Assembly: GCA_963762145.1 (NCBI GenBank)
Contig: CAVXJS010000009.1
Location: 128,001-192,000, forward strand
DNA: 64,000 nt
DNA from: an uncultured Candidatus Rokubacteria bacterium
GTDB taxonomy: Bacteria > Methylomirabilota > Methylomirabilia > Rokubacteriales > CSP1-6
Direction: 5' to 3'
Below are positions 1,632 to 9,197 of this stretch, piece after piece. Numbering within the stretch: the first letter of the stretch is position 1; the number at the start of each line of letters is the position of its first letter. Made by a program: the position numbers and the translations under genes. The notes beneath the pieces are model-generated. The model was not told the DNA's origin. It searched no databases and saw only the letters and a program-made list of their open reading frames with translations.

Positions 1632-2577
1632 AGCGGACGCGCGGGTCGAGGACGCCGTAGAGCATGTCCACGACCAGGTTGGAGACGATGACCACGATGG
1701 CGATGAACATGACGAGGTTCTGCACGATCGGGTAGTCCCGCCAGAGGATCGCCTCCACCAGGAAGCGCGCGAGCCCGGGCAGGTTGAAGACAGTCTCGGT
1801 CACCACGAGCCCGCCGATGAGGAACGCGAACTCGATGCCGATGACGGTGACCACGGGCAGGATCGCGTTCTTCAGCGCGTGGCGCCAGATCACGACGCTG
1901 CCGGACTGGCCCTTGGCCCGCGCGGTGCGGATGTAGTCCTCGCGCATCACCTCGAGCAGCGACGAGCGCGTGATGCGCATGATCAGCGCCGACGAGCGGT
2001 AGCCGACCGCGAGCGACGGGCAGCGCGAACTGCACCGCGTGGAGCCAGAAGTTCTCGGACGGCGACACGTAGGTCACCGGCGGGATCCAGCCGATCCACG
2101 CGACCAGCCCCAGGATGATGACCATGCCGAGCCAGAACGACGGCATGCTGAGGCCGGCGAGGCTGAACACGCGCAGCGCGTAGTCGAGCGGGGTGTCCTG
2201 GCGGACCGCGCTGATCACGCCGAGCGGGACGCCGAGCACCACCGACACGATCAGCGACAGCATCGCCAGCTCGAGGGTGACCGGGATGAGCGGGCGGATG
2301 ATCTCCCACGCGGGCAGATCGTAGCGGTACGACTTGCCGAGATCGCCGGTCATGATCTGGCGCATCCACTCGACGTACTGCACCCACACCGGCCGGTCGA
2401 GTCCCGAGCTCCTTCACGATCGCCAGCCGCTCCACCGGGTTCACGTAGCCCGCCGGTGGAGAAGAGAATGTCGACGATGTCGCCCGGGGCCAGGCGCAGC
2501 ATGCCGAAGATCACGATCGACATGCCGAGCAGGGTCAGGAGGCCGATGCCCAGCCGCTGGGCGATGTACGTCTTCAC
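1621..2577 (-). CDS. ABC peptide transporter permease (DppB/OppB-like), frameshifted
   Basis: Pieces: RLAPGD, GLSMPSFWLG, RITRSSLLEVMREDYIRTARAKG, ETVFNLPGL, DMLYGVLDPR. Confidence 0.9.
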
Positions 2578-2603
2578 CGTCGAGCCCGGGGCGCGCGGGT
2601 CGC

Positions 2604-4211
2604 TTACTTGTCCCGCCACACGTCGGCCATGCGGCCGAAGTTGTAGATGTTGTCGTGCGGGATCAGGTTCTTCACGTGCGGCCAGAACGTGAAGTAGTCG
2701 AGCCTCCAGTCGAGGATGGGCCGCGCCGCGTCCTCCTCGACCTTGCTTCTGGAGCCCCGCGAGCAGCAGCAGGCGCTTCTGCGCGTTGAGCTCCTGGGAC
2801 TGCTGGTCGACCATCTTCATCACTTCCTCGCTGCAGTACTGGCTGTAGTTCCGCGGCGAGCCGCAGGCGTAGTTCTCGTAGTAGTTGGCGTCCGGCTCGT
2901 CGACGCCGAGGCCGGTGAGGTTGGCCCCGATCTGGTAGTCGCCGCGGGTGGCCATCGCGTGCCACTGCGCGGTCTCCACCTGCTTGAGGCTGGCCTCGAT
3001 GCCGACCTGCTTCAGCTCGTTGATGACGAAGGAGGCCATGTCCACGTAGATCGCGATGGCCCGGGTCGCCATCTCCACGCTGAGCGGGTTCTGCGGGGTG
3101 ATGCCCGCCTCGCCGAGCAGCTTCCGGGCGCTGCGCCTTCATGTCCTCGGGCTTGCCGTACCCGGGGAGGCGCGGCGAGGTCCTTCTCGAGCAGCCCCCA
3201 GACGCCGTACGGCTTTGGCTGCATCGAGGCGCCCAGCACCGCGCCGCCCTGGTGCACGGCCTGGATGAGCGCGCGCCGGTCGATCGCGTAGCTGACGGCC
3301 TGCCGCACCTTGGGATTGTCGAACGGCGCCTTCTTCGTGTTCATGATGATGTTGTCGCTCACCGCCTGGGCGACCGGCGTGATCACGAGCTGCGGGACGG
3401 CCTTCTTGAGCTGCTCGGCCGCGGTCTTGGTGGTCTCGCCCGGGAACGAGACGTCGAGCTGCCCCGACTGCAGCGCGGCGACGCGGGTGCCGCGCTCCTT
3501 GATGATCACGTAGCGGAGGCTGTCGAGGTAGGGACGGCCCTTCATGAAGTAGTCCGGGTTCTTCACGTAGTCCACGAACTCGCCCTTCCGCCACTCCTTC
3601 ACCTTGAAGGGACCGGTGCCGATGCAGCCGGTGCGATACGTGGCGGGATTGACGTGGGCCGCGTAGATCGGCGTGTAGCCGGAGGCGAGCATGTTGAGCA
3701 GGCCCGGCTGCGGCCGCTTGAGCCGGAAGACCACGGTATGGGAATCCGCCGCCTCGACCGCCTCGAGGTTCGCGTACCAGTCCTTGCGGGGATTGATCCG
3801 GAGCTTCCCGGTGGCGTCTGGGGCCTCGCGCAGCATGTCGAAGGTGAACTTCACGTCCTTCGACGTGAACGGCTGGCCGTCGTGCCACTTGACGTTCTTG
3901 CGCAGGAAGAAGACCAGGTTGCGGTAGTTGTCCTGCCAGGACCATTTCTCGGCGAGCTCGCCCACGATGTTCTCGGGGGTCTCGGGCCGCTTCAACTGGT
4001 CGAAGACCACCAGGTTGTTGAAGCACGGCATCGACGGGAACGAGGTGGAGATCGTCGAGGACTCGTGAACCGCGAAGCCCGGCGACAGGTCCTCCCTGAG
4101 CATGATGTTCAGATGCCCGCCGGACTTCGGCGTTTGGGCAGTGGCGGCGCCCGCCCCGAGGACCAGCAGGGACAGAACCAGCACCAAGGGCATGCAGCGG
4201 GAACGCGTCAT
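2604..4211 (-). CDS. ABC transporter substrate-binding protein, family 5 (DppA-like), frameshifted
   Basis: Signal peptide, GELAEKWSW, VKWHDGQPFTSKDVKFTF, IGTGPFK, PFDNPKVRQAV. Confidence 0.9.
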
Positions 4212-4376
4212 TGTGTCCCTCCATTCGCGAGAACGCCGGGGCGGTCGCGGGTGAAGCCGGAGTCGGAAAGTGCTGAAGAATATACGACAATGCGCCGACT
4301 CCGACAACTGCTACCGCCCCGGCGCCGCGGCGGGCCCGCGGGCCCAACGGCCCGGAGGGCGCGTGGAGGCCGGCGC

Positions 4377-4889
4377 CTAGACCGTGGCGTGCGGCTCCCG
4401 GATGCCCCGGCGCACGTCGCGGCGGGTGAGCAGCTCCTCGAGCGCGATCGTGCGGGCTCCGCCCCGGCGCCGCAGCTCGGGCCGCGTCAGGATCGGGCGC
4501 TGGCGGATCTGCGAGGCCAGCCCGTTCCGCACCGCTCGGTCGGCGTAGAGGCTCCGCAGCGCGCGGCACATCAGCGGCCGGCCCCGGTTGTACCCGAAGC
4601 GGTGCTTGTACTCGTCGGCCGTCAATCCGTGGCTTCGCAGGTGCGTATTCGTGAGCTGGCGAAAGACGCCGCCGCAGACGAGGCAATGGATCGCGTCCTC
4701 CTGCACGGCCTGCCGCGGATCGGCCCGCAGCCCGGACAGCGTGCGACGACTTCCGGCCGGGCTCGCGAAAAGACCCGCGCGACCGACGGCCGAGGCGGCA
4801 CGGACCCGGTCGCGTTGGATCGCCGGAGCACCGTTCCGGGGCGTGAGGAGCCCGAGCGAAGCGTTGAGCGGCGTGCCGACCTCGGACAT
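4377..4889 (-). CDS. MucR/Ros family zinc-finger transcriptional regulator
   Basis: IHCLVCGGVFRQLTNTHLRSHGLTADEYKHRFG..PLM..GLA matches the prokaryotic Cys2His2 Ros/MucR domain. AAGGAGG RBS precedes ATG 4889. Confidence 0.82.
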   Translation of the reverse strand: MSEVGTPLNASLGLLTPRNGAPAIQRDRVRAASAVGRAGLFASPAGSRRTLSGLRADPRQAVQEDAIHCLVCGGVFRQLTNTHLRSHGLTADEYKHRFGYNRGRPLMCRALRSLYADRAVRNGLASQIRQRPILTRPELRRRGGARTIALEELLTRRDVRRGIREPHATV

Positions 4890-4947
4890 GTCAGCCTCCT
4901 TGAGAGATGAGCAGCAGATGAGGGAAAGAAAACATGCCCCTACACAT

Positions 4948-4963
4948 CGCAAACCAAATGCCA
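4948..4963 (-). promoter_or_regulatory. Sigma54 (RpoN) -24/-12 promoter for the mucR-like gene
   Basis: Minus strand TGGCATTTGGTTTGCG: GG-N10-GC with TGGCA and TTGC boxes, 60 nt upstream of the ATG. Confidence 0.8.
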
Positions 4964-4979
4964 CGGAAAAAGGCAGTGA

Positions 4980-4992
4980 GATCAATAGCTTG
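4980..4992 (+). promoter_or_regulatory. Probable IHF binding site
   Basis: GATCAATAGCTTG vs consensus WATCAANNNNTTR (one mismatch), in AT-rich DNA between the sigma54 promoter and the UAS-like repeats. Confidence 0.6.
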
Positions 4993-5022
4993 TCAAATTA
5001 GGTATTAACGGTCGGTGTTCGA

Positions 5023-5053
5023 CTGGTAAGAATCTGACCAGCAACTTGACCAG
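5023..5053. promoter_or_regulatory. Candidate bEBP upstream activator sequence
   Basis: Imperfect palindrome CTGGTAAGAATCTGACCAG (5023-5041) plus a second TGACCAG (5047-5053), about 85-115 nt upstream of the predicted sigma54 start site. Confidence 0.55.
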
Positions 5054-5084
5054 TAAGGGCTTCTGCGTTAATCCTTACCGCGCG

Positions 5085-8000
5085 ATGGATCCTTGGAGCG
5101 ATCTCCTGGGACGGAGCGCCGCAATGGAGACCGTGCGGGAGACGGTCCGGCGGCTTCCGGGACGCCAGCACGCGGGCCGCCGGCTCCCGGCGATCCTCCT
5201 GCAAGGCGAGACCGGGACCGGCAAGGGTCTCGTCGCCCGGCTCATCCACCGCCTCGGTCCGCGCGCCACCGGGGAGTTCGTGGACATCAACTGCGCGGCG
5301 ATCCCGGAGACGCTGCTCGAGGCGGAGCTGTTCGGCTTCGAGCGCGGGGCATTCACCGACGCCCGCAAGGCCAAGCCCGGCCTCTTCCAGACCGCGCATC
5401 ACGGCACCATCTTCCTGGACGAGATCGGATCGACGCCCGAGGCGCTGCAGGCGAAGCTCCTGACCGTCATCGAGGAGCGTGTGGTGCGGCGGCTCGGCGG
5501 CACGCGGCCCGAGCCCGCGGACGCCTGGATCATCAGCGCCACGAACACGGATCTCCTCGCGGGCGTCCGCGAGCGCCGCTTCCGGGAGGACCTGTATCAT
5601 CGGCTCGCGGTGCTGACCCTGCGCCTGCCTCCGCTCCGGGAGCGCGGCCAGGACGTCCTGCTCCTCGCCGAGCGGTTCCTCGCGCGCGTCTGCGCCGACT
5701 ACGGCCTGCCGGTGAAGATCCTGGCCGCCGACGCGCGCGAGCGCCTGATCGCCTATCCGTGGCCCGGCAACGTGCGCGAGCTGTCGAACGTGATCGAGCG
5801 GGTCGCGCTCCTCACCGAGGAGCCCGTCATCACGGGCGAGCACCTGGGCCTGAGCGACGGAAGCCCGGCCCCCGGGCCCGCGCCGGCCGACGCGGGCGAC
5901 GCCCCGCCCCTGATCTCGTTCGGCGACGCCATACGCGCACACCTGCGCGCCACGCTCGATCAGACCGGCTGGAACATCTCCCGCACCGCCGCCATCCTCA
6001 ACATCTCCCGCAACACCGTGCGCGCGCGCATGGAGAAGCTGGGACTACGCGAAGGTCCTCCCGTCCCGGCGAAGCGTCACGCGCGCGCGCCGGGTGTCGC
6101 CCGCCCGGCCCCGAGGCCCCCCTCGCTCGCGTCCGTACCCGGACCCGCGGCGCGCACCGCGCCGCCCACCGTCCGCTGGGAGCGCCGGCCCATCGCCCTG
6201 ATGCGCGTGGCGCTCATGGTGCCGGAGGCCGGCGATGTCCTCTCGGACGCCTCGCGCGCGCTCGAGACGCTCATCGAGAAGGTCGAGAGCTTCGGAGGGC
6301 GGGTCGAGGCGCTCGGGCAGCGCGCCCTGGACGCCGCGTTCGGCGTGGAGCCCGTCGAGGACGCGCCGCGGCGCGCCGCCCACGCCGCGATGGCGATGCA
6401 GCGGGCCGTCGAGCGGATCCGCGGGGATTCCCTCGCCCCGCTCGCGACCCGGATCGCCATCCACGCGGCCCAGGCCCTGGTGGCCCAGGCGGGACGCATG
6501 ATCCAGATCGACCGGGAAGCGAAGGAGCAGAGCGCGTTCGTGCTGGACGACCTGATCGCGGCCGCCGAGCCCGGCGGGATCCTGGCCAGTCCCGCCGCCG
6601 GCGTGCTGCTCGAGCGGCGCTTCGATCTCGTCCCCCTCGATGGGACGGAGGAATCCCCGACCGCGTTCCGCCTCGTCGGGCGCGAAGGACCGGGGCTCAG
6701 CGCGGCCGGGCGCATGGCGAGCTTCGTGGGCCGCCATCAGGAGATGGCGGTGCTGCACAGCCGGCTGCTCTCGGCCCTCCGGGGCCGGGGCCAGCTCGTC
6801 AGCATCGTCGGGGACGCCGGGATCGGGAAGTCCCGCCTGCTCTACGAGTTCAGCCAGAGCGTGAGCGCGGAGCAGGCCGCCTACATCGAGGGGCGCTGCC
6901 TGTCGTACGGGAGCACGATCCCGTACCTCCCGGTGCTCGACCTGATTCGCGGCGTCTGCCGCGTCACCGAGACCGAGGGCGCGGCGGACGCGGGCGAGAA
7001 GATCAGGCAGGCGCTCGGGCGGGCGGGCATGGATCCGTCCAAGCTCACCCCCCACCTGCTCGATCTCCTGGGATACAAGGACGTCACCGAAGGGCTCGAT
7101 CTCGCGCCGCCCGACGCGATCAAGGTCGGTATCTCGGAGGCCCTCCGCCAGATCACGCTGGGCGCCAGCCACCGCCAGCCGTTGCTCGTCGTGATCGAGG
7201 ATCTCCACTGGATCGACCAGGCGTCGGAGGAGCTGCTCGCGTCCATGGTGGACGGCCTGCCCGGCGCGGCGGTGCTCCTGGTCGTGACCTACCGGCCGGG
7301 ATACGAGCCGCCGTGGACGAATCGATCCTTCGCCACCCAGCTCTCGCTGCCGCCGCTGTCGAACGAGGACAGCCTGACCGTCACGCGCTCGGTGCTTCCC
7401 GCGGTGGCGCTGCCCGACGCGGTCGCGGAGGTGATCCTGAGCCGCGCCGAGGGCAATCCGTTCTTCCTCGAGGAGCTCGCCCTGTCGCTCCAGGATCGCG
7501 GCGGCCTGGCCGCCGACCTGGCGGTTCCCGACACGGTGCAGGGCGTCCTGCTGAGCCGGATCGGCCGCCTCGCCGAGACCGAGCAGGCGCTCCTCCAGTC
7601 CGCCGCGGTGATCGGCAAGGACGTCCCGCTTCCGGTCCTGGCCGCGGTGACCGAGCTCGCCGAGGACCCGCTCGTGCAGGCGCTTCGCCAGCTGAGCGCG
7701 GCGGAGTTCCTCTACGAGGTCAGCAGCTTCCCGGAGGTCAAGTACCGGTTCCGGCACGCCCTCACCCACGAGGTCGCCTACGAGAGCCTCCGACCGGAGC
7801 GCCGCCGGTTGCTCCACGCCCGCATCGTCCTCGCCATCGAGGCGAGCCGCTCCGACCGTCTGCTCGAGGACGTCGGCCGCCTCGCGCATCACGCGACGCG
7901 AGGAGAGCTCTGGGAGAAGGCGGTGGAGTACGCGCGGCAGGCCGGCGCCAAGGCCGCCACGCGCTCCGCCCACCTGCAGGCGGTCGCGTACTTCGAGCAG

Positions 8001-9197
8001 GCGCTGGAGGCTCTCACGCGTCTGCCCGAGGATCGGGCGCGGCTCGAGCAGGCCATCGATCTACGCCTCGAGCTGCGCAACTCCCTGCACCCGCTCGGGG
8101 ACCCGGAGCGGATCCTCGCCCGGCTCCGGGAGGCCGAAGGGCTCGCCCGGACCCTCGACGATCCGCGGCGGCTCGCGCGGATCTTCTCGTTCATGACCCA
8201 GTACTACCGGCTGATGGGACACCTCGATCTCGCGGTGGAGTCGGCCGAGCGCGCCCTCGCGCTCGCCGACCGGCAGCGGGACGGCGCGCTCTGGGTCGTC
8301 GCGAGCACGTATCTGGGCTCGGCCTACGATGCCCAGGGCGAGTACCGCAAGGCGGCCGACGTGCTCCGCAAGAGCGTGGAGGCCCTGCCCGGCATCTCGA
8401 TCGGCCAGGACGCGCGCGTTGCCGGCCTCGTGCCGGTCTTCGCGCGGATCTACCTGGCGTACTGCCTGGCCGACATGGGCGAGTTCCGCGAGGGCCTGGC
8501 GTACGGGGACGAGGGCACGCGGCTCGCCGAGGCCGCGGATGACGCGTACAGCCTGATCTTCGCCTCCTGCGGCGTGGGCACGCTCCACCTCCTGCGGGGC
8601 GACGTGGAGCCGGCAATCGCCACCCTGGAGCGCGGGCTCGCGCTCTGCCGGACGCTGACGGTGCCGGTGGCGCTCCCGCTGATCGCGTGCGCGCTCGGGG
8701 CCGCGTACTCGCTCGCCGGCCGGTCGGGCGACGCGATCGCCCTGCTGGAGGAAGGGGCGCGGGAAGGCCTCGCGATCGGGAGGATGGGTGGGCACTCCCT
8801 CCTGATCTTCCGCCTGGGCGAGGCCTATCTCCGCGCCGGGCGCCTCGACGACGCCGACGACGCGGCCCGCCGGGCCCTGCTGATGGCCCGCGAGAAGCGG
8901 GAGCGCGGGCACGAAGCCTACGCCCTGCACCTCCTGGGCGAGGTGGCGGCCCGGCGGACGCCCAAGGATGCGGGCGCCGCCGAGGCCGCGCTCCGGCAGG
9001 CCTCGGCCCTCGCCGAGGAGCTCTCGATGCGGCCGCTCCTGGCGCACTGCCACGTGAGCCGCGCCCGGCTCGAGGGGCGGGCGGGGCGCGCCGCGACCGC
9101 TGGGCAGCTTCGCGACGCGGCCACCGCGGCCTTCCGTGAGCTGGACATGCCCTACTGGCTCGGGCGGGTGGAGGCCGAGGTCCGGCCGCTAGCCTGA
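5085..9197 (+). CDS. Multidomain sigma54 enhancer-binding protein: AAA+, Fis-HTH, degenerate class III cyclase, STAND NTPase, TPRs
   Basis: GETGTGKG, ELFGFERGAFTDA, IFLDEIG, FREDLYHRL, WPGNVREL; HTH WNISRTAAILNISRNTV; second P-loop GDAGIGKS, LVVIEDLHWID, GNPFFLEEL; helical TPR-like tail. Confidence 0.9.
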   Translation: MDPWSDLLGRSAAMETVRETVRRLPGRQHAGRRLPAILLQGETGTGKGLVARLIHRLGPRATGEFVDINCAAIPETLLEAELFGFERGAFTDARKAKPGLFQTAHHGTIFLDEIGSTPEALQAKLLTVIEERVVRRLGGTRPEPADAWIISATNTDLLAGVRERRFREDLYHRLAVLTLRLPPLRERGQDVLLLAERFLARVCADYGLPVKILAADARERLIAYPWPGNVRELSNVIERVALLTEEPVITGEHLGLSDGSPAPGPAPADAGDAPPLISFGDAIRAHLRATLDQTGWNISRTAAILNISRNTVRARMEKLGLREGPPVPAKRHARAPGVARPAPRPPSLASVPGPAARTAPPTVRWERRPIALMRVALMVPEAGDVLSDASRALETLIEKVESFGGRVEALGQRALDAAFGVEPVEDAPRRAAHAAMAMQRAVERIRGDSLAPLATRIAIHAAQALVAQAGRMIQIDREAKEQSAFVLDDLIAAAEPGGILASPAAGVLLERRFDLVPLDGTEESPTAFRLVGREGPGLSAAGRMASFVGRHQEMAVLHSRLLSALRGRGQLVSIVGDAGIGKSRLLYEFSQSVSAEQAAYIEGRCLSYGSTIPYLPVLDLIRGVCRVTETEGAADAGEKIRQALGRAGMDPSKLTPHLLDLLGYKDVTEGLDLAPPDAIKVGISEALRQITLGASHRQPLLVVIEDLHWIDQASEELLASMVDGLPGAAVLLVVTYRPGYEPPWTNRSFATQLSLPPLSNEDSLTVTRSVLPAVALPDAVAEVILSRAEGNPFFLEELALSLQDRGGLAADLAVPDTVQGVLLSRIGRLAETEQALLQSAAVIGKDVPLPVLAAVTELAEDPLVQALRQLSAAEFLYEVSSFPEVKYRFRHALTHEVAYESLRPERRRLLHARIVLAIEASRSDRLLEDVGRLAHHATRGELWEKAVEYARQAGAKAATRSAHLQAVAYFEQALEALTRLPEDRARLEQAIDLRLELRNSLHPLGDPERILARLREAEGLARTLDDPRRLARIFSFMTQYYRLMGHLDLAVESAERALALADRQRDGALWVVASTYLGSAYDAQGEYRKAADVLRKSVEALPGISIGQDARVAGLVPVFARIYLAYCLADMGEFREGLAYGDEGTRLAEAADDAYSLIFASCGVGTLHLLRGDVEPAIATLERGLALCRTLTVPVALPLIACALGAAYSLAGRSGDAIALLEEGAREGLAIGRMGGHSLLIFRLGEAYLRAGRLDDADDAARRALLMAREKRERGHEAYALHLLGEVAARRTPKDAGAAEAALRQASALAEELSMRPLLAHCHVSRARLEGRAGRAATAGQLRDAATAAFRELDMPYWLGRVEAEVRPLA

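Follow-up and report, generated by a model that had tools for sequence, protein, structure and literature searches.

In the PspF-pspA system of the group V bacterial enhancer-binding proteins (bEBPs), the AAA+ domain stands first in the activator, the pspF gene runs divergent from a single sigma-54 target, the upstream activating sequence (UAS) lies next to the activator's own start, and a site of the integration host factor (IHF) type is placed between UAS and promoter. The same layout, with an IHF-like site in that place, was recognized in the locus analyzed here, positions 4377-9197 of a 64,000-nt stretch of DNA (the window; positions 128,001-192,000 of contig CAVXJS010000009.1, assembly GCA_963762145.1, from an uncultured Candidatus Rokubacteria bacterium), which consists of two divergent genes, one (minus strand) encoding a MucR-like zinc-finger protein and the other (plus strand) a giant fused activator of the bEBP type. 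PspF, however, ends after its helix-turn-helix (HTH) domain and is regulated by PspA acting in trans, while the window protein has ~1050 residues more and carries GAFTDA where PspF carries GAFTGA. Co-binding of PspF and IHF is cited in PMC7175178.

At the protein level, the STAND (signal transduction ATPases that have numerous domains) regulators MalT, GutR, AfsR and PH0952 likewise combine a DNA-binding or transcription effector, a nucleotide-oligomerization domain (NOD) NTPase and a sensor of the tetratricopeptide repeat (TPR) type in one protein, and the effector of AfsR and PH0952 is also N-terminal (PMC10936776; PMC6468293). These regulators employ LuxR, SARP or ArsR-type effectors with sigma-70 holoenzyme, whereas the effector in the window is a hexameric AAA+ sigma-54 motor; unlike them, the window activator thereby holds two oligomerizing NTPases per chain. 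Moreover, the C-terminal 970 residues of the activator align with the TOMM kinase/cyclase fusion family TIGR03903 and share ~40% identity with CHD-AAA_16-TPR proteins encoded by the same genome, a kind to which the paralog L107 belongs. The differences here are that the effector is a bEBP rather than a kinase or zinc ribbon, that cyclase residues kept in L107 are lost, and that the TIGR03903 score lies under the membership cut-off. The output protein shares with alphaproteobacterial Ros/MucR proteins the zinc-finger domain with its invariant Cys-X2-Cys and two His, but it has no oligomerization domain, carries a basic C-terminal extension of ~45 residues and, compared with Ros87, has its first His one residue later in an ungapped alignment. 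MucR is reported mainly from alpha- and delta-proteobacteria (PMC7710501), whereas the host here belongs to the Methylomirabilota.

We found no description of a bEBP-STAND fusion in the open literature that was searched, a description in subscription journals or supplements being possible. The accessible portions of PMC12316311, PMC13581612, PMC7159879, PMC6468293 and PMC7175178 describe none, and those of a 2026 STAND survey name as transcriptional regulators only the MalT, GutR and AfsR kind (PMC13581612).

We propose, at a probability of about 0.72, that the locus is a self-contained sigma-54 switch composed of a one-component bEBP with STAND-TPR input, its cognate divergent promoter and a zinc-finger output. 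The proposal builds on the computed domain order, on the promoter and repeats with their conservation and fixed geometry, and on the family-wide pairing of such activators with private divergent sigma-54 promoters. In particular, there is a strong case, as judged from sequence, that activator and promoter form a cognate pair.

Domain architecture of the fused activator

The assembly of the source genome (6.26 Mb, 70% GC) encodes rpoN (449.9 bits in a profile search against a cut-off of 277.35), the absence of which would have counted against the original prediction. Sigma-54 use in this genome is wide, with 77 TGGCA[CT]-N5-TTGC sites, the promoter of the window among them, that lie mostly upstream of a ribosome-binding site and ATG. 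Among its 21 full Sigma54_activat genes, an open frame of more than 1000 aa was found only in the fused activator of the window. The two genes and the modules of the activator are as follows:

4377-4889, minus strand: Ros/MucR-type zinc-finger gene, 170 aa (Pfam ROS_MUCR)
5085-9197, plus strand: fused activator gene, 1370 aa, with bEBP, cyclase-like, STAND and TPR parts (Pfam, NCBIfam)
5106-5846, plus strand: sigma-54 AAA+ module, Sigma54_activat at residues 8-179 (PF00158, 6.5e-58) and AAA_lid_14 at residues 185-254 (5.1e-21)
5937-6041, plus strand: Fis-type HTH_8 DNA-binding domain, residues 285-319 (Pfam, 2.9e-9), in mid-protein
6174-6674, plus strand: class III nucleotidyl-cyclase fold, about residues 364-530 (AlphaFold2 and Foldseek)
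6723-7280, plus strand: STAND-type P-loop NTPase AAA_16, residues 547-732 (Pfam, 6.2e-27), with GDAGIGKS and EDLHWID
7950-9194, plus strand: TPR sensor region, about residues 956-1370 (TPR_12, 3.3e-15)

The STAND/TPR-fused bEBP that had been predicted was borne out by Pfam, which matched Sigma54_activat, HTH_8, AAA_16 and TPR in the one chain; the full order is Sigma54_activat, AAA_lid_14, HTH_8, an apparently degenerate class III cyclase fold, AAA_16 (STAND) and TPR. Canonical bEBPs are arranged as N-terminal regulator, central AAA+ and C-terminal DNA-binding domain (PMC7175178). This order is not followed here: there is no N-terminal regulator, the AAA+ begins at residue 8, and three modules come after the HTH. 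The translation of the AAA+ module holds a Walker A motif (GETGTGKG), a Walker B motif (FLDEIG) and an L1 loop (GAFTDA).

The linker between HTH and AAA_16 (residues 320-552) returned nothing significant in Pfam or PDB sequence searches and no Guanylate_cyc match at E 10. An AlphaFold2 model of residues 330-760 (predicted local distance difference test score, pLDDT, 81.8) had cyclases as its top Foldseek matches (2w01, 3r5g and 7yz9; E 6e-10 to 3e-9; template-modeling score by target 0.62-0.76; probability 1.00). L107 (G000:C21:143951-147355) consists of a double zinc ribbon, a canonical Guanylate_cyc domain (PF00211, E 6.6e-21), AAA_16 and TPR, without a bEBP part, which indicates that the sensor cassette occurs with other N-terminal effectors as well. 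When L107 was aligned with the activator by BLASTP, the Asp of GDG fell on an Arg and the Arg of LAARME on an Asp (the first strand lies outside the alignment). We take the metal-binding Asp pair and the transition-state Arg to be the catalytic residues of such cyclases; judged by this alignment, the cyclase domain of the activator is apparently catalytically degenerate. Many further proteins match residues 391-1370 of the activator only.

Over the C-terminal part, TIGR03903 aligns to residues 403-1316 (profile positions 332-1254, E 5.6e-93) with 312.7 bits, well under its cut-off of 705.75. TPR_MalT covers residues 956-1103 (E 3.3e-5, below the Pfam cut-off), and the PDB sequence search with residues 331-1370 yielded generic TPR proteins only.

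At rest STAND proteins are ADP-bound, autoinhibited monomers, which multimerize when an inducer engages the repeat sensor (PMC6468293), while the activity of bEBPs requires the hexameric form and is, as a rule, gated through a domain at the N-terminus (PMC7175178). Since STANDs multimerize on inducer and bEBPs need hexamers, the simplest fit, by analogy, is that the STAND module drives or licenses assembly of the bEBP ring. The C-terminal STAND-TPR module would then be the signal input: a ligand on the TPR sensor would allow the NOD to swap ADP for ATP and to oligomerize, and this would permit or drive formation of the bEBP hexamer.

The main rival to STAND-driven assembly accepts the same cognate pair and takes the cyclase-like/STAND/TPR module as a cis-inhibitor or as a docking platform for an anti-activator, with the signal relieving inhibition, as PspA does on PspF or the N-terminal domains do in NtrC1 and XylR. 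It can draw on the typically constitutive inhibition by bEBP regulatory domains (PMC7175178), on an activator whose AAA+ starts without any N-terminal regulator before it, and on TPR arrays being protein-binding modules. We nevertheless consider it unlikely. The AAA_16 P-loop (G250, G252, K253 and S254 in the numbering of the segment that starts at residue 330) is invariant across 29 family members, which speaks for a functional nucleotide switch and against a mere scaffold. Moreover, inhibition and oligomerization are compatible as models, given that STANDs are autoinhibited at rest (PMC6468293).

Promoter, repeats and transcript start in the intergenic region

Homologs align to the activator from MDPW on, and the bases upstream are occupied by conserved repeats; thus ATG 5085 is the likely start, and TTG 5046, the start given in the list of open reading frames (ORFs), was dropped. 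With ATG 5085 the gap between the genes measures 195 bp (4890-5084) and has a higher AT content than the flanking DNA (GC 0.575 for 4801-5000 versus ~0.70), in agreement with the AT-rich divergent gap of the original prediction. It contains the following elements:

4948-4963, minus strand: sigma-54 promoter TGGCAT-N5-TTGCG, with the -24 GG at 4962-4961 and the -12 GC at 4950-4949
4980-4992, plus strand: IHF-like site GATCAATAGCTTG, matching WATCAANNNNTTR at 12 of 13 positions
5023-5053: UAS of three CTGGTMA heptamers, at 5023-5029 (plus), 5035-5041 (minus) and 5047-5053 (minus)
4936-4947, minus strand: conserved block GTGTAGGGRC (GTGTAGGGGC in the window), between the -12 element and ATG 4935
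4891-4935, minus strand: 14-codon ORF MFSFPHLLLISQGG, its ATG ~2 nt after the predicted start site
4895-4899, minus strand: Shine-Dalgarno sequence GGAGG, 5 nt before ATG 4889
5046-5074, plus strand: possible sigma-70-type promoter of the activator, with TTGACC (5046-5051) inside the UAS and GTTAAT/TAATCC at about 5067-5074

The exact sigma-54 promoter that had been placed facing mucR is present, and TGGCATTTGGTTTGC at 4963-4949 (minus) is the sole match to TGGCAYNNNNNTTGC in the 64-kb window, where 0.10 matches to TGGCAY-N5-TTGC were expected and 8 of 100 shuffles contained at least one. The UAS-like repeats, the IHF-like site and the ribosome-binding site of the mucR-like gene (GGAGG, 4899-4895) were recovered as well, each where the original prediction had placed it; the sequence against which the IHF-like site was scored is what we take to be the IHF consensus. 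Read towards mucR, the heptamers form two direct copies spaced by 12 bp and a third, inverted copy, yielding CTGGTCA-N5-TTACCAG. The heptamer itself is not enriched in the window (nine occurrences versus 6.77 expected, three of the nine falling in the UAS), and the full composite motif occurs a single time in the 6.26-Mb genome.

In the switch as we picture it, HTH dimers would bind the three heptamers, an IHF/HU-type bend at 4980-4992 would bring the AAA+ ring to the sigma-54 holoenzyme seated on TGGCAT-N5-TTGCG, and ATP hydrolysis would open the promoter near G4937. The transcript would give the Ros/MucR-type zinc-finger DNA-binding protein, which would relay the signal. The start site at G4937 (minus) is predicted from the C of the -12 element at 4949, in line with the original prediction. 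It is covered by the GTGTAGGGRC block, which is kept in an alignment of 18 loci and in more distant loci, across genera, and is absent downstream of the promoters of paralogous activators.

Of 28 promoters, 25 have an ATG 12-14 nt past the -12 block, and this conserved position points to a likely leaderless or near-leaderless start. In relatives the start-proximal ATG opens the first gene of the operon or continues into the mucR-like gene without a change of frame (8 loci, where it is possibly the true mucR-like start). In the window, ATG 4935 was rejected as the true start of mucR, as it opens only the 14-codon ORF in another frame, the TGA of which ends 1 nt before the mucR-like ATG 4889. 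AGGAG or GGAG is kept in those aligned relatives in which the mucR start is near the promoter.

On the activator side, the repeats, which include TTGACC, lie 32-62 bp upstream of the ATG of the activator itself, and autoregulation is plausible on sequence grounds. The sigma-70-type promoter at 5046-5074 is weakly suggested; it is partly conserved in the alignment and was not called by the consensus promoter scan. No Shine-Dalgarno sequence precedes ATG 5085. A 12-nt inverted repeat (83% complementary; 4999-5010 and 5066-5077) flanks the UAS and is kept only in the closest relatives.

Conservation of the divergent pair in related genomes

The mucR-like protein was searched in 41 related genomes, 20 of which, all in one family, gave a match. 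In the 20 best loci (the own locus included; the relatives are metagenome-assembled genomes (MAGs) of Rokubacteria or Methylomirabilota), the fused activator stands divergent from the mucR-like gene in 18, and it was absent within 1.5 kb in the other two (L021 and L022 of L004-L023). TGGCAY-N5-TTGC was found in all 18 paired loci, TGGCA and TTGC being invariant and the N5 spacer variable. The repeats are also kept in 18/18, with their end 59-63 bp from the -24 element. At the same offset as in the window, the IHF-like site has at most one mismatch in 10 of the 18 loci and at most two in 12.

A second scan, using one genome per species, gave 37 loci, of which 18 duplicated the first set and 19 were new (from MAGs of Rokubacteria or Methylomirabilota, plus some under other labels). 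Eight of the new loci carry activator and promoter with 670-2200 bp between the promoter and the mucR-like gene; the rest are two with a decayed activator, one without upstream sequence and eight diverged paralogs without the pair. Thus the search of related genomes that the original prediction had called for recovered the divergent pair in 18/20 loci, all 18 with promoter and repeats, plus eight more with inserted genes.

The inserted genes of these longer operons encode a TauE/SafE-like permease (PF01925), a ~200-aa secreted protein that Pfam does not match and a SoxY-like protein (PF13501); the mucR-like gene stands at the end. Since the promoter first drives other genes in these versions, the window form, in which it acts directly on the mucR-like gene, is probably a reduced operon. 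In L077 (2349-2878), and similarly in L080 (also L014-L016), the promoter-proximal ATG opens an ORF of 31 codons that looks like a lipoprotein signal and whose TGA overlaps the GTG that opens the SoxY-like ORF (GTGA); this layout was seen in three genomes.

Paralogous activators and their promoters

Full-length homologs of the activator (query 1-1370; frames of ~1350-1440 aa without internal stop) were found in every sampled family of the order, and relatives often hold at least five fused activators per genome. When 8000 candidates were scored with a query spanning the junction (residues 150-650), no fewer than 2639 protein clusters matched at E <=1e-10; the named ones are annotated "sigma 54-interacting transcriptional regulator" and come from Methylomirabilota, Rokubacteria or NC10. 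Of 121 genomes sampled from the phylum (three unpublished ones among them, used for this count only), 73 have the junction, and by family it is present in 60/73 (f1), 8/8 (f4), 1/1 (f3), 3/15 (f7) and 0/23 (others). The circuit of the window is therefore no isolated case but a single branch within a family of very large size.

The pairing with a sigma-54 promoter extends to the paralogs: 23 of 40 paralogous activators have a divergent TGGCA-N6-T[TC]GC at 106-194 bp from their start, whereas a site of this kind oriented like the activator gene was seen in only one of the 40. The first genes behind these promoters encode mostly ~175-aa secreted proteins, LPG_synthase_TM membrane proteins and ~158-aa membrane proteins, and in one case an acyl-CoA dehydrogenase. 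Where the window has CTGGTMA, each target class of the paralogs has repeats of its own, which links the repeats to the activator and not to mucR.

On a tree of 55 full-length activators (FastTree only, with local supports), the target class clusters, requiring 14 changes compared with 31.6 in shuffles; none of 200 shuffles came as low as 14, a case that is overstated because kin share labels. Strict monophyly of the mucR-linked activators was rejected, as they fall into a clade of 11 rows (in a 13-row group) and a separate clade of three.

With many diversified paralogs per genome, each a STAND NTPase with a repeat sensor, and with STANDs being prominent in defense (PMC13581612), the activator might be read as a NOD-like receptor (NLR)-like anti-phage sensor (an Avs-type STAND) that answers infection by transcription. 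Three lines of evidence make this reading highly improbable: i) PADLOC matched only RtcR/PspF-type AAA+-HTH models at residues 6-321 and nothing in the STAND part; ii) the targets are secreted, LPG_synthase_TM, acyl-CoA dehydrogenase, TauE-like, SoxY-like and zinc-finger proteins, with no nuclease or toxin among them; iii) the loci lie in conserved chromosomal synteny.

Evidence for and against a cognate pair

Several observations weigh against the proposed switch: i) The L1 loop of the activator reads GAFTDA instead of GAFTGA, with F and T kept and Asp in the fifth position, and most mutants of GAFTGA can no longer activate (PMC7175178); ii) The IHF-like site has three or more mismatches in 6 of the 18 paired loci; iii) None of the six HU/IHF-family genes of the genome reaches the equivalog cut-offs for IHF alpha or beta (TIGR00987 94 versus 120.25 and TIGR00988 111.7 versus 119.95); iv) No strict divergent promoter was found at 17 of the 40 paralogs; v) Two relatives, L089 (1642-1868) and L091 (1556-1846), keep repeats, promoter and operon while the activator is a short N-terminal relic. 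As to the first point, the variant is family-wide, an alignment of 29 members showing GAFTDA almost without exception, and it co-occurs with conserved promoters. As to the last, either an activator copy acts in trans or these promoters are dying. A membrane protein gene stands in place of the fused activator in both L089 and L091.

That these two loci keep promoter and repeats without an intact adjacent activator is also what favors a reading in which a different bEBP, out of the ~20 that the genome encodes, acts on the promoter and the divergent gene order has no significance. We regard this as very improbable, because the pair is kept at fixed spacing in 26 distinct loci (18 + 8), the repeats differ between paralog classes while sharing GGTCAAG-type cores with related classes, and the composite repeat is not repeated elsewhere in the genome. 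A cognate pair of activator and divergent promoter thus remains our preferred reading.

The zinc-finger output and the gene downstream

ROS_MUCR (PF05443) matches residues 55-123 of the mucR-like protein with profile positions 53-121 of 123 (E 6.8e-15; 55.6 bits versus a cut-off of 25.4), and the Ros87 zinc finger (2jsp_A) aligns to residues 58-124 (E 3.9e-6). C69, C72, H83, H87 and C108 are invariant in 20 mucR-like sequences, in which residues 48-155 are highly conserved, including the basic C-terminal extension of ~45 residues. On the other hand, residues 1-47 are variable in the alignment and have pLDDT below 50 in the AlphaFold2 model, where they are predicted to be disordered; this is a low-confidence model, whose overall pLDDT of 55.9 is too low for a fold search. 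Positions 1-52 of the ROS_MUCR profile, the N-terminal oligomerization part, are unmatched, and residues 1-55 have no Pfam match at E 10. A second mucR-like paralog of the genome (G000:C14:135495-135839; L003 1453-1932), 64% identical over the finger region, has no adjacent bEBP and no -24/-12 site and was set outside the system.

These data divide the claim of a chromatin-level regulator made in the original prediction: the Ros/MucR zinc finger is matched, whereas the silencer reading is not supported. N-terminal oligomerization is part of the MucR silencer model, and truncated MucR homologs without the oligomerization domain are described as a divergent group (PMC7710501). As this domain is missing, we do not class the mucR-like protein as an H-NS-like silencer. 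An output of that kind, by which the switch would reprogram silencing at the chromatin level, would accord with the ROS_MUCR finger, the similarity to Ros87, the conserved basic C-terminal extension and the binding of AT-rich DNA by MucR proteins (PMC7710501). Besides the unmatched and variable N-terminus, however, the gene order speaks against it: in deeper relatives the mucR-like gene is last in a TauE-like/SoxY-like operon, and a binding-protein gene of an ATP-binding cassette (ABC) transporter with its own promoter comes next, a setting that a local regulator fits better. The silencer reading is therefore improbable in our view. The neighboring features are:

3012-4214, minus strand: SBP_bac_5 gene, following the mucR-like gene
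4279-4307, minus strand: sigma-70-like promoter TTGTCG-N17-TATATT of the SBP_bac_5 gene, conserved in relatives

The SBP_bac_5 gene, which encodes an ABC-transporter solute-binding protein, lies behind the mucR-like gene, with the same orientation, in no fewer than 26 of the 37 related loci. Its co-transcription as the main output of the switch is less likely, since the gene has its own conserved TTGTCG-N17-TATATT promoter; the zinc-finger protein might act on this promoter. The SBP frame appears to be broken at about 3012-3080, where two ORFs (3012-4307 and 2350-3078) overlap although their frames differ, and the alignment with relatives changes frame at about residue 350. The cause is a frameshift or else a fault in the assembly.

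Implications for sigma-54 control in the Methylomirabilota

Beyond the single locus, we tentatively suggest, with some doubt, a large class of one-component sigma-54 activators, evolved in the Methylomirabilota and not described in the literature searched, in which an NLR-like STAND-TPR receptor, joined through a dead cyclase domain to the C-terminal side of the HTH, would assemble the bEBP hexamer when a ligand makes its NOD oligomerize. Each paralog would have a private UAS and promoter, so that the paralogs form orthogonal, plug-and-play switches. In the mucR branch the transcript would be leaderless, with the ATG ~2 nt past the start, and the zinc finger would control the promoter of the adjacent ABC-transporter gene.

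The fused activator joins in one chain a bEBP hexamer motor and a STAND/NLR oligomerization hub, in the reverse of the usual bEBP order, and should be of interest to researchers on both sigma-54 and STAND/NLR proteins. The locus also adds a new phylum to the range of Ros/MucR zinc fingers, here truncated and inducible, which bears on the reach of the silencer model. If the STAND module does gate ring assembly, it would represent a new solution to the control of bEBPs, and the family would offer a naturally evolved collection of sigma-54 switches, orthogonal and tightly off, in a soil phylum with few cultured members.

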